Assembly: GCF_036588685.1 (NCBI RefSeq)
Contig: NC_086382.1
Span: 39,060,001 to 39,124,000 of the forward strand
Length of the DNA: 64,000 nucleotides
Source: Mytilus trossulus
Taxonomy: Eukaryota
Direction: 5' to 3'
Each line of letters opens with the position of its first letter. The stretch's first letter is position 1. Position numbers and translations under genes: made by a program. Under the pieces are notes generated by a model that ran no database searches, was not told the origin of the DNA, and worked only from the letters and a program-made list of their open reading frames with translations. Positions 10,047 through 47,579 of this stretch are shown here, one piece after another.

Positions 10047-10220
10047 CTCGGATGTTCTTATCCCAGGCAGATAACCCTAGCCGTATTGGTCACAATTTTT
10101 TGGAACTTTTGGTCCTCAGTGCTCTTCAACTTTATGCTTTGTTTAAGCTTTCATACTTTTTTTTTATCTAAGCGTCACTGGTTAGTCTTGTGTGGACGAA
10201 ACGTACATCTCACGAATACA
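10047..10220 (+). mobile_element. Degenerate retrozyme-family copy
   Basis: Aligns to 47230-47455; hammerhead core mutated (gcgtca CTGGTTA gtcttgtgtggac GAAA). Confidence 0.65.
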
Positions 10221-13246: not shown

Positions 13247-15177
13247 CTACAAACACATTTCTATCTAGAATTTTTAAAATGTTAAAAATAGCTTTTGTTT
13301 TAGATAAAGAATCTGAAAGTTAAAAAAAAAGTGTTGGTATACGCGTAAGATTTTTTTTATTTTGCTAAGTGAGACATTGAGATATGACTAAGAGCTACCC
13401 ATTACATGAAAATTGAGACTGGAGCGTCTAGTTTTTATCTTATATCAATTTTCTATCGTTCAAACTGTGCTCATGTTAAGAAGGGTTGTTGTTCTTTCTC
13501 GTATACCGTAACACCTTCGGCTGTTATCTGCTCTATGGTCGGGTGGTTGTCGCTTTGACATATTCACCATTTCCTTTCTCAATTTTAAACAATATTTGAT
13601 CAATACAACAGTAACTTACCATACGTAAGAAACAGTTTTTTTCAAAGGATCTCCTGTCTTATCCCTAAAATGTTGTCAATTATCAATTATTCCAAACGTT
13701 CAATATTGTTTTATTCTCAGGATCTTGCATTCATTAAATGACAACACTTACAATTTTAGATGTCGTTCACATCTTTAAGATTTCCTTGTGGATTTTGTAA
13801 ATCAAACAAGATTAAAACAAACCAATTACAAAAGAATATATAACATATTTATATATTACAATGTGAACCGATTAAGATAATCCGAATTAAGTATTTGTTT
13901 ATAAAATACTTTATTATGAAGGACACCTTCAATGATACATTTACATTTCAATTGTTATAATATGTTTAAAAGAAAGAAAACAATCGTAAATAATCACATG
14001 TTCTTCTAATGCGTTTACTTTAAAATTTACTACTCATCAGAGAAGAGAAATAACACATCATAATATACCAAGTCGATGAAAATTATTACAAAAAGAATTT
14101 GTTCGGCATCCTCACAATAATCACCATCTATTAATATATGATACGAATAGTGTATTTTAAATTAATTATGTGGACTTTTGTTTATCTCAATTAAGTCCTA
14201 ACAAAAAATAACATGTTCTTCCACAAAAAGAAAAAAACCCTGAGGAAATAAAAAAAAACTCAAATAAGATCAAGGCCAGATTCATTGACAAGTTACCAAG
14301 CGGTAGAGCTTTGATTTGCATTCGGTGACTGTTTGTTTCCTTATGTCGATAATAAATTCGTTGCTTTGTGTTTTAATTTTGAGGGAAGGACTATTTTCAG
14401 CTGTACTGTTCTTGCTGTAACAACGCTGTCTCACAAAGGAAATGGTTTGACGGTTGCAGGCATTTTGATGGTTATCGTTGTATGCTGTATGTTTTAATTT
14501 CTTTTGTGTTTTTGTCACAAATGAGTTAATTTGGGGTTTTCGTTTGCATGGTTTCAGACGTTGTCTTGTCGTTGTTTGTAGTATTCAACTATACAGGAGT
14601 AGTTTTTTTCTATATCACTATCTTATCAACACTTAGGTTGTCAGTTTTCAAAACATATAGCGTTAAACAACCATTCATCATTCAATCAAAACGGCCTATA
14701 AACGTTTTCGAATTACGTAATTTGTACCTTATAGCGCCCTTAAAGCTTTAAATGAAGTTGAAAATCAAAAGACTTCGAAACAGTTCAATAATACTTGTTC
14801 CGTGTATTCTATTATTTATTTTTCACTGATTAATTATTCGTTAGTTGTTCTTCAGTTTAATTTTTCATGAACACAAAACCTCATAGACATTTCTGTGTTT
14901 TTGGCTGTGATTGTTTTAGACCACATAAGACATCTTTTAAACATGCTTCTTTTGAATAACCTTGTTTTGGTTGGTTATTTTCTTTTTGGCATTTTATCTA
15001 CAAACTTTTTAATTATAGAAAGACTCAAAAAAGGAATTTTATAAGGCTATGCATAATATGTAATAGATACTACGTGACCATATTCATAATGTAATATATC
15101 TGATTTCTTATCTTTAGATTGTGAATATTATTCAAAGTACTAAATTACAGTTAAGACATTTGTTTACGTTGTCAAAA

Positions 15178-18100
15178 ATGATAGATTTAACCGTATGGTT
15201 TTCGCTGTATACAGTCCTTACTGGAATGGTAAGTACAGAAGACCAGAACCGTCACAAGCGTATTCTACTCAATGATCTAGATGTTATAAATTCGAGGCTT
15301 ATTAACCTAGAGAAAGCAATGCAGGACGTGGTTCGCCTAACCCAACAACAACAGTCAACCATAGCATAACTTCAAACAGAGGTAGCACAGGAAAAAGAAA
15401 ATGTTTCCCAAGCTTTGTTAAATGGTAAGAAAATTATCACTTATTTTTTTGTCAGACACAAAAATTATGCATTAAGCAAATTTAACCTTTGCTGGTAACC
15501 TAATTGTCAAGATTAAAAGGTATGATGTATTCGAAAACTAGTTTAACACCGATATATTTATTCATTTGTTTTGCCGTTTTGACGGACCTCATACGCGTAA
15601 GTGGATGTCTAACGAATTATATTCTCATTTTGGAATATGTTGTTGATCTTTATCAAATCTGTTACAGTAGTAAGGTTATTCACTACTTTTTATCATTTGC
15701 AATTTTAAAGTAAAATGTCTTCTGCCGAATACCGTATTTTGAGCTTTATTGGTATCTTTGGATTTTGTGTTGTTGAGTTACTATTTCTTTGGTTCAGACC
15801 CATATACTTTTATTTTGTATATAGCAACTTATTGAGTATTCACAATCAGAGAGGTAAAAAAGTTAAAACTATATAGAAAGTAAGAAGTGCCTTCTACTTG
15901 ACTGGTATCAGATCACGTTTTGAGTATATTAAGTTCAAAACAGATGTGATAACAGCTCAGTGTTTATTGGCTCATTATTTTATTTGAATGTTAACACGTT
16001 ATGTTCTTGGTGAGATCTATTTTTGAATGTTCAAATTTGAATAACCGATGTTTATTGAACTCGATTTAATGTTGATTGTTTCACCTTTCTACATAATATG
16101 CCTCAAAGCTCCTGGTGATGAGATCGTTTAAATTTGCCTCATGCAAATGTTGGGCTAAATATGGGTGTGCATAAAAAAGCACTAACAATTAAAGGAACTG
16201 AATAATTGCATCGAAAGCATTTTATAATTTTTGAAACCCTCCGAAACCTCCCGTAGTACTGATTGACAGAAGTTGTTTTAAAGACATTCATGGAGCAACT
16301 ATCTACACACATCGGTAGACAATGACACGCAACATTCGGCATATGCCTGTCTCGCTCAAAAACGTGCTCTAGTGGCTGTTGTTGATCGGTGTCTACCTTA
16401 GATATAGTTCTCTATTGTAAAACCTACTTTTTGGAACTGTATGATATTTGATCATGCCAAGACATTTTACAGATTAAATAAATTGATATTCGCAGGGATC
16501 TCCATGGATGAAAATTTCACCATGCAGAAAAGCTTAACTTGAAAACAAAATCATGATTGCCATCGAAATCAATTTTACGTGCCTAAGAAAAAAAAGGCTA
16601 GTTAAGAAAGAGTGATATGAGCAATGATACCCATTTTAGTATACGTCAATAGAATAATTCGATATTTTAAATTTTTTGTTCATCGTTGTACGCCGCACGT
16701 GACTTTTTGTTGATAAATTATCCTTGTATTTTGGTCTTTGGTAGAAACTTTCTCATAAACAATTAATCATACATTATCATTAATATTGAAGATCCAATGT
16801 CATTTTATATTTTTAAGTACATTTTGCAAAAAAATGCTGAATGAATTATATATTTTGACCAGTGTAAAAATTATTTGGAATATTCTTATCGAAATATATT
16901 TTATTAATACTTCCAGATCTTATGATGCCGTCATATTCATTTTTTATTTAAGACAGGGGGTCTACGTATATTCGCTGGGGACGCAAACAATGTAGCGGAG
17001 TCAATACAGAGATGCTATACACAGGTACTTAGATATTTTCTAGAAGAATTAAATATCAAAAAAGTTATAAAGAGTGATTATGTTAAAAAGAATTTTATTT
17101 TTTTATTTTGTTTATACATCTGATTTTACAAAATAGAAAATGTTACGTGTCCAATAAATGTATTTCTGAATCAGCTTCACGGAACTCTCCAATTAATTTT
17201 ATATCTTTAAAGGTTTGCATAGTATTCACGCGAACACTAGATGAGCGCTTTTTAGAAAATATGTTGTAAAAATCAGATTTTCTTTAACCAAAAAAACAAG
17301 AAGAATTACACGAAAAGCGTAAAGAAACAATGCATGGTTGTTTCTCATGGGAACAACGTTATTGAGCCCTTTATATATGGTGTAACGAAATCTTTAAATA
17401 AGACTTAACAAGGCTTATTAAAAAATTGTCACATTTTTGCTGTTGTTAAAATGCATAACATTTACGTGTTGCTTAGTCTTTAGTTTTCTATTTTGTGTCT
17501 TTTTAGCCATTGCGTTGACAGTTTATTTCTATGAATTTGAGTCTCCCTATGGTATCTTTCGTCCCTCTTTTAGTCCACTTTTGTGTTTTCTGGATGAATT
17601 TCAAAATTCCAATGAACAACTACATCTAGTCATCATAGTCCAAATGACTATGATGTTATTAAGGGACTATGTAAAATAAGGTTTTGTATTTTTGCCAATG
17701 AAAGTTTGAAACAACTATCCAGCAAAGTCCAAAATAAATATTTAAGAAACGTTAGGTCTTTTAAAACAATCAGCAAAACATTTACCCATGGATACTTTTA
17801 ATATAGAGTCATATATGAAATGCCACCACATAACAAAGCAATAAACGAAAAACAAATATGGCATCAACAAACGACAACCATAGAATAACATGTTATCAAT
17901 TATCACTGTACTAGTATACATATCTTTAAGGGACCAGCTGAAGGACGCCTACGGGTGCTGAAATTTTTCGCTACATTGAAGACTCATTGTTTGCCTTCGT
18001 CTGTTGTCTGCTCTACGGTCGGGTTGTTGTCGGTTTAATACATTCACCATTTCCTTTCTCAATTTTGTTTCTGACTTGGCACGTGGACAGAACAATAAGG

Positions 18101-19151
18101 AGGGATTTATTCGCGAGCGTTTAATTCTCTTTTTAATTGGAACAGTGGTGCGACAAAACCAACTTCAAACTGATTGACTCATCAGATCCAAAGCAAGAAA
18201 AATATATAACATTAAAACAAATGTCGCAACGCACCGATCTATGAACTTTTATAGTTCAAAGCCAATGACAGAAAAAATATCAGCATGTGCAAAGGCCGTG
18301 TTTTGTTAATGTCAACTTGAAGAAGCCTTCTTCTGGTTATTGCCTAAAAAAATATATTCTCACATTTTCACCACACTTATGTTTTTGTTATCATTATTTT
18401 AAGAATTACTAAATTTCTGTAGCTTTTTATTTTGAAAAAGATTTAAAATTAAAAAACATCTGCGAATTTGCAATTAATGTATGTTAGAAGGATTTTATCG
18501 CAAAATTGGTAGGTTTTTTTTTTAACTTAATGCAACATTTGAAAAAAAAGGAAAGAACAATCGCAAACCCATTTAATCGACAAAGTATAAATTGATGTAT
18601 AGATATGCAATTTGTTTCGAAAATTGTTTAACTTAATATGTCTTGTATAACAATTTAAAATGTATAATATGTGTTTTTAAGGGTTTGCAGCAGGCCAAGA
18701 ATATCAACATACTCATAATTATGGCGATCCAGCTAATATGTTATGCCTACCAATCAATCCTGAACTAAGCAATAGAACAACACCAGGTAGCAGCTTATTG
18801 GTGGGAACAGAATATGAAGATGGAAACTTCTTTGCTAATGGTGCTCAAGATGAAGATGTTCCGTGTGCACTATGCAGAAGCGCAAATACATCATCATCCA
18901 TAATGATACCTGGCAGGCAATCATGTGATCATGGTTGGAAAATGGAATTTCATGGTATATTGGCATCGGGTAGCTATACCCAAAAACCATCAACGTACAT
19001 CTGCCTTGACAGTCATCCCGAATTTTTACAAGCTGGACAAGATAACAAAGATGGTCGTTTACTGTATGCTACCCGGACTAAGTGTGGATATTTGGCCTGT
19101 CCTCCTTATGTTGACAACATGGCTATAAACTGTGTGGTTTGTTCTAAATAA
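15178..19151 (+). pseudogene. Short-chain collagen C4-like gene copy A with nonsense codon (exons 15178-15424, 16953-17024, 18682-19151)
   Basis: Signal peptide, HKRILLND.D, coiled coil; 72-nt STYIRWGRKQC exon; GFAAG..MLCLP..DVPCALC..CPPY..CVVCSK exon; all phase-1 GT-AG introns. TAA at 15367-15369 where copy B has CAA. Confidence 0.8.
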
Positions 19152-19625: not shown

Positions 19626-22201
19626 TTAGTCATTCACAGCCATCAAAAAGTAATTAAAACACCTGACATCAATATATAGTTAACTTTACTAAGTATTTGT
19701 TATGTACCACATAGCACAGTTTTATTTTCGATCCCGTAAAGAACTAAGTAATTCAAGCGATTTAAAGAATATGTTATATCCGCCACCAATGATCGACTCT
19801 TATCAAGTAGATGATTAAGTTGAGTCTTTAAAATTATTAACGAAGAGAAGCGAAAGACACCAGAGGAACATTCAAATTCATAAGTCGAAAATAAACTGAC
19901 AACGCCATTGGTAAAAGGTAAATGAATAGACAAACAGACACATAATAGTTCACAAGAATCAACATAAATAACTATAGACTGAGCAACACAAACTTCAACA
20001 AAAACTTCGGGTGATATCAGGTGCTCCGAAAGGATAAGCAGACCCTACTTCACATGTGGCACCCGTTTCTCAGGTTTTAACAGACCAGGTAAATAGCATA
20101 ATTCGGAATGTCCCGTTCGTGAAAAGTGAACTGAATTATAGTAACGGCATAAGCAGCATATCCGATATCATCTGTGAAACGAATATTCCATAACGGTCGA
20201 CCAACTCGTTAAGGTATTCGTATCTAGATGTCAGAAAAAAAGTTTCAGATACTATTTATCTTGAAAAACATACGAGTAATTGATTGTTTCGTAAAACTTT
20301 GAATAGATTAGGGTCAAGGTGGCAGGTAGAAAATTTCAAAAGGCAGATCGAATTATTAATTTTCATTTTTGATCGTAGTATTCAGCGCTTTTTACTACTA
20401 CTATCAAATAAAAAATGGTTTATTCGACCTTCCTTTCTATCAACTTTTTGTTTAACCATCGTGAGTCACGGTATTTTGATCTCGACTGACGCTTTCTATA
20501 TGAAATTGTTTTATGAAATAAATAAAGCCTGTAAAAACGTTTACATGACATAATTGCTTAGCCTTGTTCAAACTACACGACACGATTAGTCAAGACAATC
20601 ATAACACATGAAAGTCGCTTGAAACTTGAACAGATTATTGAAATCTTTAAAACAAAACAATATACGAGAAAAAACAGTATACTAAAATATGCAACAACAA
20701 AAAAATGTAAAGTAGGATTGGAATAAGTAAATAAAATTTATTTAAAAAAAAAGCCTGAATTGACAGAATCTCATGACTTGGTTTGAAGCTCATTGTTTTG
20801 GGGTTTTTTTTGTTTTTTTTTCCAGTTTCCAACAGTTGATAGTTAGCATTAACATTCATGTTAAAGGTTGGATAATATTTTTTTTACAAAAACTATTGAT
20901 AACAACTTGACTTGTGTATTGTTTGTTGACTTATATTCATTCAAAACACACACACCACATAGAGGGGTAAGACACTCATCGCGACATCGTAAGCATATTT
21001 AAGTTAAAGAGGTAAAACCAATTTTTTGAATTAATGATGAGAAATAATTACAGCCCGGTAGATAGCATATGTGCATTTGGCTTGCGTAAATTTCTACATA
21101 AGATGGTACAATCAATTATTCTGATTGAGAAGATTGAAAGAGAAATTTCATGTTAATTGATGGATTTGACAGAAAAACATTGACTTAAATAAAGGTGTAT
21201 ACTAATGATAAACAACTCGCAAAGGACAGATTTCAAAAGAATAACACTACAAATTTTGAGCGAATGAAGAGTTTTTTCCCTCTTCAGGTAAGGACAAACT
21301 TAAACATTAAAAAGCCAGTAATGTTTAGATACAAAGAAACTAAAGGAGCAGAATGACCAAAATGACCATGTTCCTTTACTTATAATGGTCTACTATAATT
21401 ATTGTGACTAAGATAGAGAGTTGTTACATACTCATATCGCATGTTACTATATCTATTAAATGAAAGCCAATTCATCACCTTGAGCACAAGGTGTTAGAAC
21501 ATTAGTATCTCAATGTTTTCGTCATTTATCAAGACGTAGTTTTAAAATATATATGTTAAATCAGGTCAGTACGAAAGCAATAACTACTAGGTGAATGACG
21601 ACCTCTAAGATTTATGGTCCATCATTTTCAGAAACGGTCTTTTGATAAGGTTTGCGAATAAAGGCAACCAATACATATATATTGACATTAAAAACATATG
21701 ATTCATCAAAGGCGAAAAAAATGTTTTGTTTTTTGCTATACGGGAACAACCAACAATTTATAATTAATCAAAATTAACGATAACCAAACATGCGAAGTGT
21801 ATTTTAGGCGTAAGGGTTCTGCAGGTTTTAAATAAGAGAACCTTCCTTTTACGATTAGTTGTCTATCAGATTTATATTATCTCACTATAAAGCATTTGAA
21901 TACGAAAAATAAAGTACGAAGTTGAAGCTCTTTGAGGACCAAAATTCCTAAAAGTTTTGCCAAATACAGCTAAAGTAGTCTATGCCTGAGGTAGAAAATC
22001 CGTAATTTTTCAAACAATTCAAAAATTTGTTAACAGTAAATTTATAAATATAACCATATCAATGAAAATTCATGTCAGCACAAAAAGTGCTGACTACTGG
22101 GCTTGTGATACCCTCGGGGGAATATATCTCCAACAGTAGTGGCATCGACCCAGTGGTTGTAAATAACCTCATCATAGATTCCAGTACCAAATTTAGTAAA
22201 T

Positions 22202-22245
22202 ACGCCAGACGCGCGTTTCGTCTACAAATGACTCATCAGTGACGC
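22202..22245 (-). ncRNA. Type I hammerhead ribozyme
   Basis: gcgtca CTGATGA gtc-atttgta-gac GAAA c-gcgc-GTC tggcgt; stems I-III pair; predicted cut between 22208 and 22207. Confidence 0.85.
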
Positions 22246-22566
22246 TCGAATCCAAAACAGTTAAAAAGATCAAATACGGTACGAAAAAGTATAGCATTGA
22301 GGACCAAAATTCCTTAAAATTTGCCAAATACAGCTAAGGTAATCCATGTCTGAGGTAGAAAAGCCTTAGTTTTTCAAAAAATTCAAAAAAATTGTAAACA
22401 GGAAATTTATAAATGTAATCAAATCACTGACAATTCATGTCAGCACAAAAAGTGCTGACTACTGGGCTTGTGAAACTCTCGGGGAAATAAATCTCCATCA
22501 GCAGTGGCATCGACCCAGTGGTTGTAAATAAACTCATCATAGATACCAGGACTAAATTTGGTATAT

Positions 22567-22610
22567 ACGCCAGACGCGCGTTTCGTCTACAAAAGACTCA
22601 TCAGTGACGC
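22567..22610 (-). ncRNA. Type I hammerhead ribozyme
   Basis: gcgtca CTGATGA gtct-tttgt-agac GAAA c-gcgc-GTC tggcgt; intact core; predicted cut between 22573 and 22572. Confidence 0.9.
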
Positions 22611-22889
22611 TCGAATCCCAAAAAGTTTAAAAGGCCCAAATAAAGTAAGAAGTTGAAGTGCATTGAGGACCAAAATTCCTAAAAACTTTGTCAAATACAG
22701 CTAAGGTAATCTATGCTTGAGGTAGAAATCCTTAATTTTTCTAAAAAATATCATAAACAGTAAATTATAAATATAACTATATCATTACACAATACGTGAC
22801 TCCATTCAAGATTTGATTTCTTATCTTGACAATGCCTATACTTCTACACCTACAATCGACGTTGATAAAGTCATTTGCATATATTCCAA

Positions 22890-23223
22890 ATGGCAATTGT
22901 TACCGTATTATTTTCGTTGTGGATTGTTCAATTGCAACTGGTGAATACTGCAGACGAATTCCAACACAAACGTCTCCTACTCAATGATCCAGATGTTATA
23001 AATTCGAGGCTGGTAAACCTAGAGAAATCAATGCAGGACATGGTTCGCCTAACCCAACAACAACAGATAATGCAGTCAACCATAGCACAACTACAAACAC
23101 AAAATACCAATACGCAGTCAGCGATGGCTCAACTTGAAACTAAAAATACCAATATGCAGTCAACCATTACACAGCTACAAACAGAGCTAACACAGGAAAA
23201 AGAAAAAGTGTCTTTGTTAAGTG
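22890..23223 (+). CDS. Short-chain collagen C4-like gene copy B (intact, 291 aa), exon 1: signal peptide plus coiled coil
   Basis: MAIVTVLFSLWIVQLQLVNT hydrophobic leader, HKRLLLNDPD, Gln/Thr heptads; donor G|GTAAG at 23224 (phase 1). Confidence 0.85.
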
Positions 23224-23682
23224 GTAAGATAATCGTCTTGTTTTCGATAAAAGTATTTTGTTAGAAAAAACTTAGGGCAAAGCTGGCACTGAACTTGGGT
23301 TGCAGGCCAGTTTACAAGACGCGCTTGGATTTGACGATTTTATATTACTCATGAAAAGGTTTACCAAAAAAACCTTGTTTGAAAGGTCTATAATTTGTTT
23401 TTCTTCACTGAAGATTGAAATCTGAATCACTTGCTGCAACATATATAAAGCATAATTTTTTTAATGACACAAACATATATATATAGCCGTCCCGCTAGAC
23501 CAAACGACCACCTGAGCAATCGCCAATGGTAGTCAGCAGGGTCAAACAACATCAGTTGTTCGACCTGTTAGTCAAATGCGTTTTGTTTAAATATACTTTT
23601 TCACTTTTTTGTTCTTCTGGAAAATCAAAAGTGTACATAACAACACCAATAACACAAAAAGGAACTATAAATGTAATAATTT

Positions 23683-23720
23683 ATAAATATTTCGGATAAC
23701 AGATATCCTTCGTCAGTCAG
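23683..23720 (-). ncRNA. Candidate minimal hammerhead (Penelope-type)
   Basis: Minus strand CTGACGA-a-GGAT atctgtt ATCC-GAAA-tatt-TA with palindromic AAATATTT stem III; stem I not evident. Confidence 0.45.
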
Positions 23721-24217
23721 ATTCTGTGGCCGGGTGTTACCTTTCCACGTCAGTTTCAATCTAGCGTCGTACTACAGTACATGATAAATAAGGCATGGAG
23801 ATGTTATCTTTACAGATCAGCTAAATTATCTATAATAAAGGGTTCTACAAATTAAGGTAAGATACAGTCACAGAAAATAATTACCGTTCCTCGTCAGTAT
23901 ATATATATATATACAATTTTCAGATCTAACAATGTTGGGTTGATGTTAAGACGAGTTGTATATACATAATGTCCACAGCCATGTGTCACAATCACTGCTG
24001 GTGTTTTAGAGTTGTCACTGGCTCAGACGTATTTATGAATATAATTATTTTCTGTGACTGCATCTTTCATTAATTTTTATGATGTTTAACTATAGGTAAT
24101 TAAGCCTATGTGTAAAAATAACATATCCATGCCTTATATATCACTTACTGTAGTACGAAGCTAGATTAAAACTGTCTTGGAAAGGTAACACCCGGCCACC
24201 GAAAGCTGAATTTTTTA

Positions 24218-24572
24218 TGAAGCCCAGGTAGTCGTGTGGTTTAGCGGGACGGTTATAGTGCAGGCGATTTGGTGTCACGATATCTCGGTAACATGGGTTC
24301 GAATCCTGGCGAGAGAAGAACAAAAAATTTGCGAAAGCAAATTTATAGATCTAACATTGTTGGGTTGATGTTTAGATCACACGACCACCTGGACTTCATG
24401 AAGCCCATGTGCTTGTGGTCTAGCGGTACGGCTACGCTACAGTGCAGGCGATTTGGTGTCACGATATCTTAGTAGCATGGGTTCGAATCCCGGCGAGGGA
24501 AGACAAAAAAAGTTGTCGAAAGCAAATTTACAAATCTAACATTGTTGGGTTGATGTTTAGACGACTTGTATA
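24218..24572 (+). mobile_element. Two tandem tRNA-derived SINE-like copies
   Basis: A box TGGT(T/C)TAGCGG and B box GGTTCGAATCC in each copy (24218-24376, 24399-24572); ends in (TA)n; partial copies at 23487-23516 (-) and 23921-23962. Confidence 0.75.
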
Positions 24573-25116
24573 TAAATATATATATATATATAGTGAAATA
24601 CTGTTACTGTCACAGGTTATAGGAATCAAGTTTTTCTTTTTTTAGTCCAAAAGTGAGGAATTCACTGTCCAGTGATATTAAAAAATCAAAAATTATATCT
24701 GTATTCAAATACTCTTAAAAGTCATTATTTTTTTTAAACGTGTGAAATTTATAAGTTAAGCCACAATGCATACTATAAATGTTTTTGTTGTTGTTATATC
24801 TTTTTATATACATTTTACTTCTATTGTTTACATGTGTGTGATAGTAGATTATTTATGTTTTATTCATACAGTTCACATTGTCTGTAGAAGTTATATTTTT
24901 AAATATAACCTACTTTTTAACGTAGATGTCCAACATATGAAGGGAGACATCAGTTATAAATTCGTTCATATCATTTTTGTTTTGATGTGTAAACATGTAT
25001 AAAGTTGTATTCGTATACTTGAATGTTATTTATCAAGTAATATTGCATTGTAATTTCCATATACATGATAACAGTGTTAAGATAAATATTCTTTTTTCAA
25101 TTTCTTTTTTCATAAG

Positions 25117-25188
25117 ATAGGGGATCAACGTATATTCGCTGGGGACGTAAACAATGTAGTGGATTGCACACAGAGATAATGTACACAG
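25117..25188 (+). CDS. Short-chain collagen C4-like copy B, exon 2
   Basis: Polypyrimidine tract plus AG; 72 nt (D)RGSTYIRWGRKQCSGLHTEIMYT(G); donor CAG|GTATAC; same length in all three copies. Confidence 0.9.
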
Positions 25189-26532
25189 GTATACTTGAAA
25201 TTCTTGTTTATAGAAATTAATATGGATATTTGGGTTCCAAGAATTATATAATATGAATACAACCATCCTAAAAAATTTTAAACATTACCTGATTACAAAA
25301 ATCTCATTGAAGAAATGATTTCGTTCACATTGTTATGAAAACGATTTTAATTCCACAAAAATTTACAAAAGACCAATACCACAAATTATGTTCTATAGTA
25401 GATTACTCTGTAAATACTTTTGAGTTGCAATCTGTTGAATCATAAATGAATTTAACTACATTAATCTACTAGTAATCAAAAGTATTTTTCCGTGCTTTCT
25501 TCTCATTTCGTTTGATGGCTTATATGACCTAGAAGTGGTCCTCAGCTTTAACAAATTATGTATTAATTCAGTTGAAGTCACACTAAACTCCAAAACATTT
25601 AATGAACTAAAATGAAAAACATACAAAACTCACAAAACTCACAAAGGCAAGAGGCTCCTGACTTGGGACATGCGCAAAACCGCGGCGAGGTTGAACATGT
25701 TTTGTGAATTCTATACCCTTTCCCTTTACCTCTAGCCATTTAAGAATAAGGAAACACACATCAATATACGCACAGTAAATCTCAGTTTAAAAGAAGTCTG
25801 GGTCCGATGTCAGAACAGGTAAATGTAACAAAAGAAACTAAGCAAAATGACAATGTTACATAACTCAACAAAGGACTACTAGCAGTTATTGACATGCCAG
25901 CTCCAGACATCAATTTAACTGATTGAAAGGTTATGTTTTCATCATATGAAAATCAAGTATAATCCCTTCCGTTAGGGATTTAGAACAATATACCATCATA
26001 AAATATATTATCCATTTACTTAGCATGGGTTTTCTCCTGGTCTTGTCTTTGCTTAAAATTAGTAGTAAGTTCTACGAGAAATGAAAGGACTCCGTCGATG
26101 ATCTCATCAAACATACCATGGCAAGTCCGGTCAGTTTTTTGTTCTATCTGATGAATTAAGCCCTTACTGATTTTCTATAGTTTGTTCTTATGTACTGTTG
26201 TACCACTGTCTCATGTAAGGGGTTGTCACCTTTATACATGTTTAACCCCACCATATTCCTAAATGGCCGGTCCCAAGTCAGGATCATATGATTGTTTTCC
26301 ATATTTGTTTTTTCGTTTATTGTTTTGTTTCACCATGTTAACTGAACACGTTCTATATCATATATTTCATTTGATCTGTAGTGGATACATGAAGTTAGCT
26401 CATTGTCAATCATACATGTACCACATCTCGTTATTTCTATATTATGACGTCAGTATAATTGTCTTCAATGACTGGTTTGCTACATATGTTCTCGGTTACA
26501 TGATCAAGTTGTACGATAAACTATTATTGTAG

Positions 26533-27002
26533 GTTTTGCATCAGGACAAGACTATCATCGGTCTAATTATTATGGTGGTCCAGCTAATATGCTTTGTCTT
26601 CCAAACAATCCTGAACTAAATAATAGAACAGGAACCAGTGATAGCTTCTTGTCAGGAACCGAATACGAAAATGGAAATTTTTTTGTTGATGGTGCAGCAA
26701 ATGAAGATGTCCCATGTGCACTATGCAGAAGCGTAAACAGTTCAACATCAATAATGATACCTGGCAGGCAATCATGTGACAGTGGTTGGAAATTGGAATA
26801 TCACGGTATATTGGCATCAGGTCACTACGGTCATAAACCATCATCATATATTTGCATTGATAGTCACCCAGAATTTCTACAAGCTGGACAAGATGACAAA
26901 AATGGTCATTTACTGTATGCCACTCAAACTAATTGTGGATCTTTGGCCTGTCCTCCTTATGTCAACAACAAGGCTATCAATTGTGTCGTTTGCTCTAGAT
27001 AA
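26533..27002 (+). CDS. Short-chain collagen C4-like copy B, exon 3 (Cys-rich C-terminal domain)
   Basis: Acceptor ttgtAG at 26531-26532; GFASGQDY..GGPANMLCLP..EYE..DVPCALC..IPGRQSC..YICID..CGSLACPPY..CVVCSR*. Confidence 0.9.
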
Positions 27003-27319
27003 AGCATCGAAATTCTTGATTGAATTAATCAAATTTTTTCATCTGCAATTATGACTGGAGAAATTTCCAATTCAGTTTGATACCAATTGAAATATTAAAA
27101 AATAAGTCTTCATTTCTTTTCTTAATCTACTTTTGTCAGGAATCAGAATAGAAAGACCTCCAGTAACATTGAATAACCGCAAATTCTTCACACAAAAAGA
27201 CAAATGGTTTCCCTTTTTCTCGAAAGACTTCATATTTGTAAAACTTGTGCATATTACATGTCAATTTTTCTGACTTGCATATGCTGCAAGTTAATGAAAC
27301 ATACTGTTTAATAAAAAAT

Positions 27320-27699: not shown

Positions 27700-27930
27700 A
27701 ATACGCCAAAAGTGCATTTTGTCCACACAAGACCTACCAGTGACGCCCAGATACAAAAGTTTGAAAGCCGAAACATGTACAAGGTTGAACAGCATCAAGG
27801 ACCAAATGATAAAAAAAAGTTGTGCCAAAAACGGCCAGGGTTTTCTGTTAGTTACCAGAACATCCCTATTATTTAGAATAATTTATACTTTTGCAAACAG
27901 TAAATTTGATAAAATGACTATACAAAAGAT
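27700..27930 (-). mobile_element. Degenerate retrozyme-family copy
   Basis: Aligns to the array unit (acgcca...gtccacacaagac..ccagtgacgc...aggaccaaa...aaacagtaaatt); core mutated. Confidence 0.55.
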
Positions 27931-28289
27931 GTTCATGATAAAACTGAAGTATTAACTAATTAATTTTGTAAAAAATGAAGAAGAAAAAATGACGTCATTT
28001 GAATTTGTAAAACAGATCATCAAAAAATGAAAAATGACGTCACACTTGAGTGAATAAGATAGTGTTAGGATTGATTTAAGATTGTATTTGAAATAAATAC
28101 TGATATTGCATTTAATAACAATGCACATTTCAATACTTATTAATACCATACTAAGGTAGCAATTAACTATATTATAAAGCTATTTCCGGTTTGTTTTGAA
28201 TCTAACTTCAAACTTAAAATATCGTACTGATTACGTTGAACAAAATCATATCTAATAAATGAAGGCGGTGATTAATTTTCTTTACCATA

Positions 28290-29272
28290 ACACATAAATA
28301 TAATAAAAAAGACTCAACACATTTGACAAAATCCGATGTGAATTACAAATATAACATTAAACATTTAAACTAAATACATGAATTTGGGATAGACAAGTAC
28401 CGTAACACGTCTTATAGTAATGCGAATTCACACTCAGCCAAACAGTCAAATTCGGGAATAAGTCACGTTTGGTAATTAAAAGATTAGACGACATAGTGAC
28501 AAACCACAATCTACCATGTGGTAAACATGTCCTTAGCTAGTTTTGTCAAACACATCGTATGGATCCCCCAATTCGTGATGGTGTACATAAAATTTACGGA
28601 GCAGTTACTGTGTTAGGAGCACACTCCTGTATATGAAGTCCGTATAGTGTGAACAAGCACGAAAATAGCGTATCAATTGTGATATGTAAACACCATACGA
28701 AGGGGCAGAGGGTATATTACTGCTGAGAAATGGAAAATTGATAATGTGGAAGTTGAAATCGTCCCGTTTATCATAGATTTGCGTGTGAAGTCGTCCATCT
28801 ACGTCAATATTGAGGAAAAGATCAAGGTATGTAGCAGTCCTTCTAGTATCAGTAGTACCCTTAATTTCAAGTTCACTGGGTTATATGAGATGTAAGAAGT
28901 ATTGGCTGAAATATGGGTTATTCAATGATAGAATATCATCAATATATCGGAAAGTAAAATTAAAGAATTCCGCAAGGTGCTTTTTCTTTTTGTCTTTTAG
29001 AAGGTTCTGAATGAATTCTGCTTCATACGAGTACAAAAACAAATCAGCCAGCAGGGGTGCACAAAAAGTACCCACTGGAATACCGACTGTCTGTTGAAAT
29101 ATAAATCCTCCAAACTCAACAAATATATTGTCGATCAAAAAGTCCAGCATTTTAATAATATCATCTTCAGTATATTTCTGGAAGATTCAGTGTGATTCTT
29201 CACAAAATATGAGTTATTGTAACCCAAAACAAGAAATTTGTATCTACGATTTCCATTTTTATAGAATAAGCT
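28290..29272 (-). mobile_element. Penelope-like retroelement, 5'-truncated and frameshifted RT
   Basis: FQQTVGIPVGT.CAPLLADLFLY, FRYIDD, YLDL, IYDKRDDFNF, NFPFLSSNIP..PSYGVYISQLIRY; frameshifts near 29180 and 28885. Confidence 0.8.
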
Positions 29273-32040: not shown

Positions 32041-32249
32041 TGATAGAGATTCCATACAACCCACAGTAATACAAGAACTGAAACATTTGACTTATTTGAT
32101 CGTCATATTGTACCACAACTAAAGTTAAGTAGTCAAAAAAGATGTGATACACATCCCAATGTTGTAAATTAAAATACAAAACTTTTACTATGTTTGGATT
32201 GACTTCTATATAAGTACCATCATTATCCCTTAGCTTCACGTTTGATTTT

Positions 32250-32345
32250 AAACTACTTTGATCTTAGCGTCACTGATGGGTCTTATGTAGACGAAACGGG
32301 CGTTTGGGTTTTTTTAATTATTAAGTTATAATATTGGTACATTTG
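32250..32345 (+). mobile_element. Degenerate retrozyme fragment
   Basis: gcgtca CTGATGG gtcttatgtagac GAAA cgggcgtt; core and cleavage site mutated. Confidence 0.6.
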
Positions 32346-33949
32346 ATAACTATTTGATATATTAACGATGCATAGTTAAATCTTTGTATGTTGCTTTTAA
32401 TCTATAATTTAACCATGATAATCGGTGGAGCACTTCACCTAACAATGACAGATGACAGTTTTCTGTCTGGGACCTTTAAATTTAAATGCAGTAAAAGTTT
32501 AGATGCCCCAGAAATAGAACACATATCAGAGCTTACATGTCATGGCATGGTTTAATAATGTTATGCTATGGAACAGAGAGTTTATAACGAAAGTTTAAAT
32601 GTTTAACGAAGGCTTTGATAATTTGGTTGATCACCGACATGAAATGTGTGTGTCAGAAATGACAACGTTCAGGTATATATTCAAATTGTTGTACCGGTAG
32701 TGACAAAATAATCCGTTTTTTCTCGACTCTGGTCATCTTTAAATGTAACCTATTACTTTCATTGTAGTTGCATGAGCACCATCGTTTGATCACAGTCTGC
32801 CTACAAGTCCGGGGCTCATGAGTTCAATTATTGTTTTTTATGGGTTTTGTGTTCCTCAGTCTAAAGTTTAACTGTGTAGTGTACAGTACTTTAGTATGCC
32901 AATCATTTTGTTTTTTGCAATTTTATGGTTATTTTTTGTACCCTTGTTGTATACTCTCGACTTTTCTGAATGTTTTTATGTTATCAATTTCCTAGTATCT
33001 TGGTTTGTGTGTTTCTGCTTGAGTAAGAATGTTACACAATGTGGAGTTCTGTACCACTAATAATTACATCATATGGATTATGTCTGTTTGTTTTGCTTAC
33101 ACATTGTTATAAATATAGTGCAAATGTCAACATTAGAAAATGTATGTACCAAGTCAGGAATATAACAGTTGGTAACCATTCGTTTGATATTTACAATCTG
33201 ATAGGGACTTTCCAATTTGAATTCCCTCGGATTTTGGGTTGGTTGTTTATGTTACTTTTCCCATACTTCTCTTGTTCACTAACACAGCAGTTAAATAGTC
33301 TATCTAACTTGGCATGATCAGCTATCATACCATATTCAAAGTTAAAAAAAACAACCGATTACCAGTTTTCAGTTCACATTATTATACACGTATATCTATA
33401 ATGTGAATACAAATACGGAGCTGTGGTAAGACTGCTAATCAGACAAATATATACTAGAAACTGAGCGACGTCGTTATAAGAAATATTTTGTCATCGTACG
33501 GCCACCAACGTCCAATAAGCAAAACAGTATAGTTAGCTATACCCTTTACAATATATTTGAAGGAGTACCAAAAATTTAAAGAAAGTTATGGTCACCCTTA
33601 TTTACGACTTTGATACACAATCCAAATTGAAAAAGCCAAAAAAAAAAAAATCTATGAATTGACTCTGTCTCCGGAAATAACTTTTGCGACTTTCTGTATA
33701 GTAGAAAGAAGAAAAAACTGGTCACAAATCTTAATTTTTTTTTCAAAAGAAATATTCTTTTTGAAATCTTCACTTTGGCAAAAATCTACATGTGTGTTCA
33801 ATATTACAATTTTGAAATTAGGGATAAGCCTTAAGGCTGAGTTGCATTATCAATTTATTTCCAGTAACTTAATTACACATAACATTAACCGTTGCAGATA
33901 TGTAGCAAGGAAAATAATCAAAATATTTAGTTTTAAAATTCTAAATACA

Positions 33950-34135
33950 CTGATCATAGATACCAGGATTAAACTTTGTATTTACGCCAGACTCGCATTC
34001 CGTCTACAATAGACTCGTCAGTGACGCTCGAATCCAAAAAAGTTGAAATGACCGAAAAAAGTACGAAGTTGAAGAGCATTAAGGACCAAAAATCCTAAAA
34101 GTTTTTCCAAATACAGCTAAGGTAATCTATTCCTG
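33950..34135 (-). mobile_element. Retrozyme-family partial copy with a mutated hammerhead
   Basis: Minus strand gcgtca CTGACGA gtctattgtagac GGAA tgcgaGTC tggcgt; flanks match the array unit. Confidence 0.75.
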
Positions 34136-34275: not shown

Positions 34276-36588
34276 ATGAACATATTATGTAGTATAGTGC
34301 TGGCATTACACATCATTCACTTTTACGTTGTTCATGCAAACAACGTATCTAGTTTAGAAAAAAAGACTTTTATTAAATGACCCTGATGTTACGGCTTCGA
34401 GGCTTTCAAATGTTGAGACATCATTGCAAGATATGATTGGACTAACACAACAGCTGCAGAAACAAAATTAAAACATGCAGACAACCATAGCACACCTTGA
34501 GGCAACCGTGGTGAAGGAGACATCTAAACGTGTGGATTTACAGAAGAACCTGTCTCAACTACAAACCAGACTTGATCAGAAGACAGGTAAAGTTTCTCAA
34601 TTATTGTTGCAAGGTAGGTAACTGCATCCATCCGTATTTTATTTGTAAGTTGTTCTTGGTTTTTTTAGCTGAATTTCAAAACGTTTGGATACATTTGTTA
34701 GATTGGTTGTAAACTTTATAAAGATAAACTGATCTTTGGTCGGGGTGTTGGCTCTTTGATACATTCCCCACGTTCATTCTCAATTCCATTAAAATCAATC
34801 TGGATTAAAGTAATAAAATACTGTTTTAGCACAAAAGACAAAGGGTTGACCAATAAACCAATTCCTGACAATCCAGTTTAGAAGTAATTTTCGTAAGACG
34901 AAGCTGTAACCCGTCCAATGACACTTTCTTCAGACGTTGACAAAAAGTCCTTGATTCTTAGAATAAACAAAATTCTTACACGTTGTAGATAAAACAAATT
35001 GTTTCACCAATAACACATTATACTCTTAAACATATTTTTGTTTATTAAATCTTGTTTCCCATTCGTCCAGCTACACAATTAAGTTGATATGGTCAATGTT
35101 TGATTTTGTTTTATGGATTTCCCTTTATGAACTTGCCTTGGAGTAATTCTCTTTTTTTTTGTAACTATCAAACATATTTTCCTTAAAATAACGTATTCTT
35201 TTGAGAATTTAATTAAATGCCTAAGATTTCATAATCATATCACAAACACCAACAGATAGCTTTGAGGATAACATAAAATTTCGGACTAAAACGATAAATA
35301 AATGGACAACGAGCCTCTGAAGTATTGGGTACATGATATGTTTCGGAGGAAATCGAAAAGACATTTTGTTTCAAATGTTTCAATTCGACTTTGTATTTAA
35401 TCAGCTGAAACAAAAGTAACTGGTATGAAAACTAAATATCTTTAATTCTTAATTACATGATAAGTGTTTCAATTGGATGACCCTGTCCTGTATCTTGTAC
35501 ACTTTTGATCTATTTTTTTCTTTTGTGATTATATCAATAACAGATCCAGGATCGACGTATGTTCGTTGGGGACGTAAACAATGTGCTGGAGTACACACAG
35601 ACTTAGTTTACACAGGTATTGTATAATGTATAACGATTTGACCAAAGGATGTGTCCTTACTTTCATTCTGCTTCCATTGACGTACAGTGTAACGCTGTTA
35701 GGAAAATGATCTTACAGTTATTTATAAACAGATATAGAATGTATTGTATAAAGGTTCATGAGACGGCATTTTAACAACACAATGAAAAATGATCGTAGAT
35801 GGGTTTTGTGACATGTGATACTACTGTATTGCTTTTATATATTAAATGACGCGTTTGATATGAATATAATACGAACCGCTTTCTGCTTTCTGTAATAAGA
35901 ACGTTCAAATTTATAAACTTTTTAACAAAAAAAATAGTTGTAAATACATATATCAGTGCAGCATACATGCATTTAACTTATAAGATTTAAATACGATACG
36001 GTTGAAACAGACTAGACAGTCGAACATCTAAAATCAAATTTATCTTATATTAAGACTTTTTTACTATTACAAAATTCACGATGAAGATGTGTGATATATT
36101 TGAATCGTAATTTTAGGTTTTACAGCTGGCCAGGAACACTTCAAAGCTTCAAAATATTACGGAGGTCCTACTAATATATTGTGTCTTCCAAATAATCCTG
36201 AACTAAGCAACAGAACAGCTCCTGGGGTAGTGTTCTGGCGGGATCAGAGTATGAAGATGGAAACTTTTTTATTAAGGGTGCTCAGGATGAAGATGTTCCA
36301 TGTGCTCTGTGCAGAAGCAGAAACACTTCATCCTCTGTGATGATTCCTGGTAGGAGAACCTGTTATGATGGATGGCAAATGGAATACCGTGGAATTTTAG
36401 CATCGGGAAACTTCCTCCATAGACCTTCATCATATATATGCATCGATAGTCTGCCAGAATTTATACAAGGCGGACAAGATAATAAAAATGGCTTTGTTCT
36501 TTATGCAACAGCGACTAAATGTGGATCATTGGCATGTCCGCCATATGGCGACAACTTAGCAGTTAACTGTGTTGTTTGCTCGAAATAA
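34276..36588 (+). pseudogene. Short-chain collagen C4-like copy C (exons 34276-34613, 35544-35615, 36117-36588)
   Basis: +1 A in the A7 run (~34358-34364), TAA at 34469-34471, and a 1-nt deletion near 36227; otherwise collinear with copy B, including STYVRWGRKQC and CPPY..CVVCSK. Confidence 0.85.
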
Positions 36589-39334: not shown

Positions 39335-39480
39335 TAACCTCATCATAGATACCAGAATTCGTCTACAAAAGAACTCATCAGTCACACTCGAATAAAACAT
39401 GTTAAAATGGCCAAATAAAGTACGGAGTTGAAGAGGATTGAGGACTAAAAATTCCTAAAGGTTTTGCCAAATACAGCTTT
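39335..39480 (-). mobile_element. Retrozyme-family fragment (hammerhead partly deleted)
   Basis: ctcatcatagatacca...ttcgtctacaaaagaactcatcag...gaggactaaaaattcct matches the array unit. Confidence 0.7.
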
Positions 39481-43479: not shown

Positions 43480-43605
43480 TTTTGGCGTTTCGTCTACATA
43501 AGACTCATCAGATCAAACTAATTAGAAAGCCAAACAAGTACAAAGCTGTGCCAAATACGGTTAAGGTAATATATGCCTGGGATAAGAAAATCCTTAGTAT
43601 TTCGA
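43480..43605 (-). mobile_element. Retrozyme-family fragment
   Basis: gcgtttcgtctacataagactcatcag...gccaaatacggttaaggtaat...tgcctgggataagaaaatccttag. Confidence 0.65.
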
Positions 43606-44355
43606 AAACATGAGGAACACGCCTATAGTTTTATTTGTTTATGCTTTGAGAGATACGGATTTCAAACATACTCCAAACTTAATAGGCATCTATTGTGGTA
43701 AACAGTTAATATATAAAACTGTCTCTAGCTCAACGTAACTTTGTACATTTCATTGTCTTGAATAAATTGAAATATTTGCATCAGGACTTTCATAACCAAA
43801 CAATCAAGCAAACAAGTGTAATTGCAGTAGTTAAATTATGTTTATACACACACATGTATTATACATACATAATATAGTGATATAACACAAGCACCAATAT
43901 AAATATACAAACTAATTGTAAACACCAGACATAAACAAAATAGCTTTTCAAGTGTATTGATTTACTTCCCTTACTTTTTATCAGAAACGTATACATTATT
44001 TATGTTGTAACTGGCAGTTTTATAGTACTACAGTTTTCCACATTACAATTTATGGCAGTGGTAAGTACAGGAGACTTTATATACATTTTGCAAATGGTAA
44101 AGACTTGACAGTTAAATGTAAAATTTTGAATATTACTTTACTTGAAAGCGAAAGCAATGTTTTTGACTTGAAACATATAATCGATAATTAGCAGTTTACA
44201 TGCACAAAATTATTAAAGCGAACAGTAGAAACAAAGTAATTATCCACGTTTAAATAATAATAGTCTTATAAGTGTGAATTATATGGGTATTATGTTGGGA
44301 GAATATTATTAATATTTCATTTCATGTAAGGAATATACAATACTGTAAAGTCACG

Positions 44356-46540: not shown

Positions 46541-46765
46541 GTGAATGAAAAGTCAGAAAAACATCACGTGATGGTTAAAGTTGGTGGTGGTTGGGAGACA
46601 CTGGAGGACTATATGGACCGTCATGTGCCATACAAATTCAAGATAGCAGAGTATAAACGGCCATTATATAGTAACACGTGTGAAGTTAAAGACATATATC
46701 TTGGAATTAAATCACATTATAAGTCCTGGAACCAATCAAAACAGTTTTATTATTCACTATTTTGA
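46541..46765 (+). CDS. Stand-alone GAR domain protein, exon 2 (117 aa total)
   Basis: Acceptor ttttgcAG at 46539-46540, phase 0; HVMVKVGGGWETLEDYMDRH is the GAR signature; tail DIYLGIKSHYKS. Confidence 0.85.
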   Translation: MNEKSEKHHVMVKVGGGWETLEDYMDRHVPYKFKIAEYKRPLYSNTCEVKDIYLGIKSHYKSWNQSKQFYYSLF

Positions 46766-47229
46766 AATAAATATTTTTTAGAAAATCAACAGAAAATATA
46801 TAAAAGTGTTTTTTTACCGATATGAACTAATATTTTAGTTATGAACGACGGTGAACAAGAATACCTTTTTTTTTTAAGTCTGAATAACTCAGAAGACACG
46901 ATTGAATAAAATGAGAAATGAATAAATGAACACTGCAATCAGAGTTTCGTTGCTTCACAAATGTGCTAAATAAATATTACGTAAGTGACCGAAGAAACAG
47001 TCTTAAAAATGTTATGTTGCTATTTAAATGATGTGTTGGCGGAGTAGTTTGGCCATAATTCTTGTGACAAATGTTTATCTTGCACCTCCTTACGTTTCAA
47101 TACTTTATGCATAATGGAACTGGACATAAAACTATAAATAGTATAAATGTTATTTTGATATAGATAAAGTGCAGCTGTTCTTAACTTTTTATAAAGATTT
47201 GTTTTAATAAAGAAGTACCTTAATAAATT

Positions 47230-47455
47230 TCCTGTTTACAAAACTTTGAATTTTTCGAAAAACTAAGGTTCTTATCCCAGGCATAGATTACCTTAGCCGT
47301 ATTAGGCACAACTTTTTGGAATTTTGGATCCTCAATGCTCTTCAACTTTGTATTTGTTTGGCTTTATAAATATTTTGATTTGAGCGTCACTGATGAGTCT
47401 TATGTAGACGAAACGCGCGTCTGGCGTACTAAATTATAATCCTGGTACCTTTGAT
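47230..47455 (+). mobile_element. Retrozyme-family monomer
   Basis: Reverse-complement homolog of the array unit; contains an intact hammerhead. Confidence 0.8.
47384..47427 (+). ncRNA. Type I hammerhead ribozyme
   Basis: gcgtca CTGATGA (47390-47396) gtct-tatgt-agac GAAA (47410-47413) c-gcgc-GTC tggcgt; predicted cut after C47421. Confidence 0.9.
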
Positions 47456-47579
47456 GAACTATTTTACTCAATATTGTTTATGCTAACACAAGTTTGAAAC
47501 GAATTAACCTCTTAATTTTGCAATGTGTAGGCCATCAAGCAGTTTACAAATAATTAAAAATCTTACACAGTTATTATCA

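Follow-up and report, generated by a model that had tools for sequence, protein, structure and literature searches.

A worn retrozyme array in the mussel Mytilus trossulus and a stem-loop in common with Naiad elements, the likely site from which its family is copied

Hammerhead-bearing retrozymes without long terminal repeats (non-LTR retrozymes) are described in the mussel Mytilus galloprovincialis as tandem repeats of 350-390 bases with low G+C content and a type I hammerhead (PMC7229834; statements on this and the other papers cited below refer to their accessible sections). A cloned mussel repeat self-cleaves at about 0.1 per minute, and circles, abundant in mussel tissues, are the main RNA form of these repeats (PMC7229834). 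As for the enzyme that spreads them, a Penelope-like partner was proposed there in general terms only, the accessible text describing no fixed 3′ end, common stem-loop or specific partner, and such a partner was then supported for Xenopus, whose retrozymes, as derivatives of Penelope-like pseudo-LTRs, have a terminal sequence in common with autonomous Penelope-like elements (bioRxiv 10.64898/2026.07.22.740005); in its accessible part this study covers no mollusc, names no cis-element and mentions Naiads only in a coral, unlinked to a retrozyme. For the Penelope-like element Poseidon_Ac it is reported that the protein initiates cDNA synthesis internally, where a stem-loop follows the hammerhead in its RNA, that targets are AT-rich and that genomic copies end at these start sites (PMC11167929), a picture which the retrozyme considered here resembles. 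Full-text search, with most subscription journals outside its scope, found no literature tying retrozymes to Naiads via a common element, and the papers that name both make no such connection in their accessible text. Here, we address a tandem array on the minus strand of a 64,000-nucleotide stretch of the M. trossulus genome (NC_086382.1, 39,060,001-39,124,000; hereafter the window, with positions counted from its first base). We consider it likely that the array is a worn and probably silent copy, 2.4 units long, of the known retrozyme and that its family is copied by the reverse transcriptase of Naiads, starting just before a stem-loop which both kinds of element have in common.

A preliminary description of this DNA, made from its letters alone, had placed on the minus strand two type I hammerheads with GUC sites 365 bases apart, and both the core pattern and the Rfam model Hammerhead_1 (RF00163) confirm them. 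The cores occupy 22573-22604 and 22208-22239; chance expectation for such a core is 0.01 per window, and three or more matches appeared in none of 100 shuffles. The Infernal check proposed in that description was carried out and matched both sites, 22567-22610 with 32.5 bits (E 6.8e-06) and 22202-22245 with 32.1 bits (E 9.4e-06), and since both values are slightly under the gathering score of 34, the gathering-level Rfam scan of the whole window returned no match. Repeat search delimited a tandem array at 21907-22757 (period 365, 2.3 copies, 85% matches), homology extends it to 22784, and the monomer between the predicted cut sites has 36.7% G+C. No stop-to-stop frame of at least 100 codons overlaps 21907-22784. 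The array is composed as follows.

21907-22784, minus strand: entire retrozyme array, some 2.4 repeats of the 365-base unit, by repeat period and homology
22573-22784, minus strand: unit A, 5′-truncated (monomer bases about 147-365), with hammerhead 1 at its end
22567-22610, minus strand: hammerhead 1, type I (RF00163), predicted cut between 22573 and 22572
22208-22572, minus strand: unit B, full 365-base monomer between both predicted cut sites
22526-22532, minus strand: TTTATTT, monomer bases 41-47, usual end point of family insertions
22461-22519, minus strand: bulged stem-loop as at the Naiad 5′ start, damaged in unit B
22202-22245, minus strand: hammerhead 2, also type I; stem II is interrupted by an A-A mismatch, and cleavage is predicted between 22208 and 22207
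21907-22207, minus strand: unit C, monomer bases 1 to about 300, ending about 25 bases before the expected start of a third hammerhead
22096-22154, minus strand: second copy of the stem-loop, also damaged
21907-21913, minus strand: TTTATTT at the 3′ end of the array, second copy of the family end motif and a possible deletion scar

Hammerhead 1 is built of a 6-pair stem I, CUGAUGA, a 4-pair stem II, GAAA and a palindromic stem III, while in hammerhead 2 only three of the four stem II pairs are present. The palindrome noted previously in stem III is real and measures 8 bases (ACGCGCGU), though the stem is of the two-pair-plus-tetraloop kind, with GCGC as the tetraloop.

Both the unit length and the G+C content lie within the definition of non-LTR retrozymes (head-to-tail repeats of 150-450 bases, G+C under 50%), and the further features of this definition are found as well: a type I core in consecutive units, no coding frame and many dispersed copies. 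In the genome searched (1.30 Gb, 541 contigs, 14 of them large), the exact hammerhead core occurs 18,401 times against 0 for the reversed control and about 5,000 in an older draft genome (PMC7229834), and full monomers are spread over many contigs. One hammerhead type is common to units of 354-355 and 365 bases, with compensated versions in families of 350 and 364 bases. Compared by eye, the monomer resembles the published text of a 375-base M. galloprovincialis retrozyme (PMC4918200 Additional file 11), the likeness spanning the 5′ tail, the stem-loop and the hammerhead. Judged by this resemblance, the focal element is one copy of the already published mussel non-LTR retrozyme family, so that the class named in the preliminary description was the right one; class and family are known, and the locus is real, here decayed. 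In its decay this copy differs from the published M. galloprovincialis retrozyme, and its own expression is putative. The 350-base family (loci L182-L210), which makes up the majority among the first 100 of 3,011 matches, combines its compensated hammerhead with an AUC cut site, the palindrome AUGCGCAU and the same stem-loop, which is found also in the 364-base family (L126 2570-3273; L111 960-1150) together with a more divergent hammerhead-like motif, the palindrome AAGCGCUU and a weak stem II. Long arrays of 354-355-base units are located close to the start of contig C1 (G000:C1:113000-288000; L078), and in L078 the 5′ ends of short arrays adjoin TTAGGG-like repeats.

Insertion ends were mapped in the window and in 57 of 100 loci, the other 43 being overlapping views of the same arrays; of the 86 arrays obtained, 4 duplicates and 3 cut by a locus edge were removed, which left 79. 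The 3′ ends prove to be fixed: 64 of the 79 arrays stop at +38 to +57 after the last cut site, and 62 end 1-10 bases 5′ of the stem-loop foot (monomer base 54 in the 365 type, 48 in the 354 type), with a mode of 6 and a random expectation of about 2. The 5′ starts, on the contrary, are scattered across the unit. The 350-base family has a tail of about 34 bases, and the same stem-loop is the end point in 9 of its 11 distinct arrays (16 of 29 loci used); since this shorter-tailed family ends at the same stem-loop, it is the stem-loop that the array end tracks, rather than how far away the hammerhead lies. In RNA reads, taken from 6-18% of each of four runs on other individuals, family sequence gives way to mixed flanks at 22525-22526 (agreement 0.46-0.57). 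Some of the off-site ends are alignment breaks or old fragments. The focal array itself is atypical in ending at another TTTATTT (21913-21907), probably because about 112 bases from one TTTATTT motif to the other were deleted, which would account for the absence of both the third hammerhead and the usual tail. Target-site duplications were sought across the mapped arrays, where none was consistent, and at the focal array, where no repeat longer than 6 bases is found across both flanks, its 3′ end being atypical and maybe deleted. Six more retrozyme fragments are found in the window, at 10050-10203 (+), 32240-32355 (+), 33939-34135 (-), 39358-39478 (-), 43485-43608 (-) and 47220-47464 (+); of these, three have the usual 3′ end, and the last contains a third intact hammerhead of the same family (47390-47421, plus strand).

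47220-47464, plus strand: 354-type fragment apart from the array, its hammerhead intact and its 3′ end at the usual place (+42)

A reverse transcriptase remnant in the window led to the Naiads.

27701-29272, minus strand: broken Naiad; after the reverse transcriptase remnant (28551-29272) comes a stretch resembling the retrozyme, its hammerhead dead (27701-27958)

Its full counterpart, Naiad family 1 (L131), occurs in tandem copies with a 927-codon frame, in which an N-terminal GIY-YIG (PF01541, 23.0 bits at a cut-off of 22.6), CxC, DKA and a C-terminal reverse transcriptase follow one another, and it was assigned to Naiads because this order is their diagnostic layout (PMC8557442). Two further families were detected via the endonuclease. 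All three Naiad families open with the retrozyme stem-loop, which immediately adjoins the 3′ end of the copy before it; family 2 retains 86% identity to retrozyme bases 45-115 while its tandem copies are 100% identical to each other, and the published Naiad_Mgal and Naiad_Mcor sequences likewise begin with this stem-loop. Retrozymes thus have the same 5′ stem-loop and polar ends as Naiads (PMC8557442), which are said there to lack canonical hammerheads, whereas the retrozyme has a live hammerhead and no reading frame. In Naiad families 2 and 3, the core pattern finds no hammerhead, and family 2 (L167) is blank in Rfam too. In 28 of 30 family 1 loci there is a stretch 70-75% like the retrozyme whose hammerhead is dead; either the Naiad has lost a hammerhead that it had ancestrally, or it has captured a retrozyme. 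This stretch, 241 bases long and duplicated, lies in the 3′ untranslated region (L131, 7636-9300). Among the retrozyme loci, no Naiad reading frame evidently continues in cis into an intact array, and reverse transcriptase matches there looked like unrelated neighbours (not traced individually). At L152 (G000:C7:84508040-84508810), about ten tandem 77-base copies of the Naiad 5′ stem-loop alone precede a full-length copy.

The stem-loop is 59 bases long, and its core motif occurs 13,880 times in the genome (control 0). The same bulged hairpin is predicted in all five intact insert-free examples (z from -2.0 to -3.5), a sixth having one added arm. In the alignment of 9 sequences, pairing holds in 94% of cells, and two-sided changes affect 8 of the 23 pairs; these changes amount to 20 cells versus 7.9 after shuffling (reached in 0 of 500 shuffles) and 0-7 in slid controls. 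Both focal stem-loops are weaker, with -18.9 (22461-22519) and -20.9 (22096-22154), where a young copy reaches -26.6 kcal/mol. Comparison of the stem-loop by eye with twister, pistol, hatchet and HDV-like folds gave no fit, and a seeming second hammerhead on the opposite strand, suggested by read ends, turned out to be the reverse complement of its top hairpin.

Taken together, these features can be arranged into the following scenario. Intact arrays are transcribed, cut at each hammerhead and ligated into circles, as others have shown for the family (PMC7229834). The Naiad protein would then probably bind the 59-base stem-loop, which starts about 54 bases past the cut site, introduce a nick in AT-rich DNA and begin to copy about 6 bases ahead of the stem-loop, by analogy with Poseidon_Ac (PMC11167929). 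Copying would run back across the hammerhead junction for a variable length, giving head-to-tail arrays with variable 5′ ends; as the start lies about 48 bases from the cut site, longer insertions need a template continuing through the hammerhead, that is, a ligated circle or uncut tandem RNA. The focal copy would have decayed afterwards by divergence of its units, mutation of hammerhead 2 and of both stem-loops and probable deletion of the usual 3′ end. On balance, we favour, with somewhat less assurance than the bare involvement of a Naiad enzyme, the reading of retrozymes as hammerhead-bearing parasites of hammerhead-free Naiads, in which the 59-base stem-loop is the Naiad loading signal with the start about 6 bases upstream, at least four families carry this signal, and circles are copied round into arrays.

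Several points weigh against this account. The link to Naiads draws on sequence, fold and analogy, and among Penelope-like clades the survey covered Naiads, so that another partner may be involved. Fifteen of the 79 arrays, the focal one included, end off the usual site, and the loci were chosen by likeness to the monomer or the core. The covariation set consists of 9 related sequences from which the structure itself was derived, and this favours the result. Silence of the focal locus is weakly tested, since the reads are a 6-18% share of four runs made on other individuals, where the neighbouring host exons are unread too, and with both focal cores intact, cutting could take place if the array were transcribed.

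The most serious competing explanation concerns the template: the Naiad enzyme may copy uncut tandem or read-through RNA, with cutting and circles as a by-product and not a transposition intermediate. Hammerhead mutants of Poseidon_Ac insert unaffected in vitro, the hammerhead being dispensable there and unprocessed RNA the main template (PMC11167929); Naiad families 2 and 3 make tandems with the same end while showing no hammerhead by pattern (nor, for family 2, by Rfam); and many RNA reads of the family cross the cut site, although short reads do not distinguish circles from tandem transcripts. On the other hand, stems I, II and III all vary in a compensatory manner between families, which points to selection for cutting, the 15 near-identical units of array L079 are simply explained by a circle, and circles predominate among the RNA forms in mussel tissue (PMC7229834). 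We treat copying of uncut RNA as a tentative possibility, less probable than the copying of circles by the Naiad enzyme, both templates fitting our data.

Whether the focal locus itself produces a circle is a separate matter. According to the preliminary description, the locus can release the monomer 22208-22572, which would imply minus-strand transcription, cutting of both hammerheads as a dimer and ligation of 365 bases into a circle. Catalytic cores and stems I are intact in both hammerheads, the predicted double-hammerhead fold (-27.7 kcal/mol) lies 3 kcal/mol below the sum of the misfolded single minima (-13.1 and -11.6), family reads favour the hammerhead-sense strand in three of four runs, assuming the usual library strandedness, and family circles are abundant in mussel tissue (PMC7229834). 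Against this stand the signs of decay. Unit B is 88% identical to unit C and 81% to unit A, below the 91-98% found between the units of five other arrays (eight arrays were entered and three with fewer than two monomers dropped), and its best other copy in the genome is 91% identical. The sequence of hammerhead 1 has 1,390 exact genome copies, while the A-A mismatch variant of hammerhead 2 occurs at just 12 scattered places and is for that reason taken as a sporadic change; an association of this variant with a downstream change was dropped on the same ground. Of the reads placed on 21000-27200, 89-95% continue unlike the locus, and at two positions that set unit B apart from the family, 56 of 58 and 50 of 58 reads have the family base. 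None of the four runs shows a pile of read ends at either predicted cut site, and nearby host exons have zero reads in the same runs; as the reads come from other individuals, they are evidence of family expression and not of locus silence. The array is, besides, antisense to the neighbouring gene, and eight of nine predicted retrozyme dimers in Xenopus failed to cleave in vitro (bioRxiv 10.64898/2026.07.22.740005), which calls for caution in inferring hammerhead activity from sequence. Release of the monomer from this decayed locus, overlain by reads with alleles of other copies, is thus unsupported and appears unlikely; we regard the focal copy as worn and probably silent.

Suitability of the fold for dimers, also put forward in the preliminary description, is favoured by energetics and by the kept palindrome, but a requirement for dimers is unsupported. 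Plain folding of either hammerhead yields no active fold and nothing better than shuffles (z 0.08 to -1.05 and 0.91), and single active folds are predicted at -5.7 and -3.9 kcal/mol, against the misfolded minima and the double-hammerhead value given above; the circular monomer folds weakly better than shuffles (z -1.6, 40 shuffles). Since the double fold is favourable and the palindrome is retained with compensatory changes in the 350- and 364-base families, dimer folding is plausible. Its necessity is unsupported because helix III consists of two pairs and a tetraloop and because the cloned mussel repeat cleaved (PMC7229834). Dimer-dependent Amex1 hammerheads of newt and axolotl have a single-pair helix III, a palindromic tetraloop and poor monomer cleavage, from which the focal helix III differs, and two-pair helix III is rated as more stable than this amphibian kind (PMC7229834). 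Loci L017, L025 and L084, with arrays of up to nine units, present a stem III variant shortened to ACGCGU, one pair plus tetraloop, which would rely more on dimer folding.

Community of the stem-loop could also reflect nothing but descent, if it were a Naiad promoter or translation element persisting in a deletion derivative while other retroelements copy the retrozyme. The stem-loop does sit 10-20 bases before the Naiad ATG, and the downstream part of the retrozyme present in family 1 Naiads implies common ancestry or capture. The fold is nevertheless retained in four frame-less retrozyme families, and insertions of both kinds of element end at the stem-loop foot, which makes descent as the sole explanation doubtful, slightly more so than circle production from the focal locus. 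Far less probable is the assumption that the stem-loop is an unrecognised self-cleaving RNA cutting at its 5′ side and setting the ends of hammerhead-free Naiads: the letters of its internal loop are invariant and both elements end just 5′ of it, but it is a single bulged hairpin, pseudoknot-free in predictions, Rfam gives no match, even with E allowed up to 1, for the Naiad locus searched, the ends spread across about 8 bases instead of falling on one bond, and internal priming accounts for the same pattern. Least probable of all, spread of an ordinary satellite by DNA-level duplication with hammerheads as passengers, for which long arrays near the contig C1 start and segmental duplication of some loci could speak, is largely refuted by the polar end pattern, as one fixed and one variable end of dispersed copies are unpredicted by unequal crossing over.

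By itself the locus matters little, being one decayed copy in a published family with so many hammerhead cores. The family-level connection to Naiads is weightier, because the enzyme spreading animal retrozymes is stated as open in the accessible literature, and Naiads had been regarded as the Penelope-like clade that lacks hammerheads. Given a short covarying RNA element, a predicted start close to it and young Naiads with long frames, one protein and one RNA would suffice to test the question; if the connection is true, it would offer a natural case of small RNA circles being copied into DNA by a reverse transcriptase.

The start codon of the neighbouring host gene lies 105 bases from the array, on the opposite strand.

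22890-23264, plus strand: start of a host coding exon, with hydrophobic N-terminus and coiled coil, 105 bases from the array

Since the array is antisense to this plus-strand gene, the transcript of the gene would lack active hammerheads; its first exon was looked for and not located. The gene (22890-27002) is one of three paralogous plus-strand genes, together with 15157-19151 and 34361-36588, each with a coiled-coil exon and a cysteine-rich last exon, for which Pfam returned no family above cut-off. A GAS2-domain exon (PF02187, E 4.3e-09) at 46541-46765 (+) ends about 455 bases before the fragment with the intact hammerhead on the same strand, and the hammerhead at 47390-47421 could cut the mRNA of this exon if the 3′ untranslated region extends that far. 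No tRNA genes were found in the window, and polymerase III transcription of the retrozyme monomer was dropped as a candidate because the monomer contains nine runs of at least four T. A repeat at 23482-24601 is composed of 162-base inverted arms and flanking copies with the motif GGTTCGAATCC, which we take to resemble a tRNA B box, and reads of other copies map to this repeat on both strands. Eight tandem repeats of 60 bases (60212-60691) are included in an 864-codon open frame.

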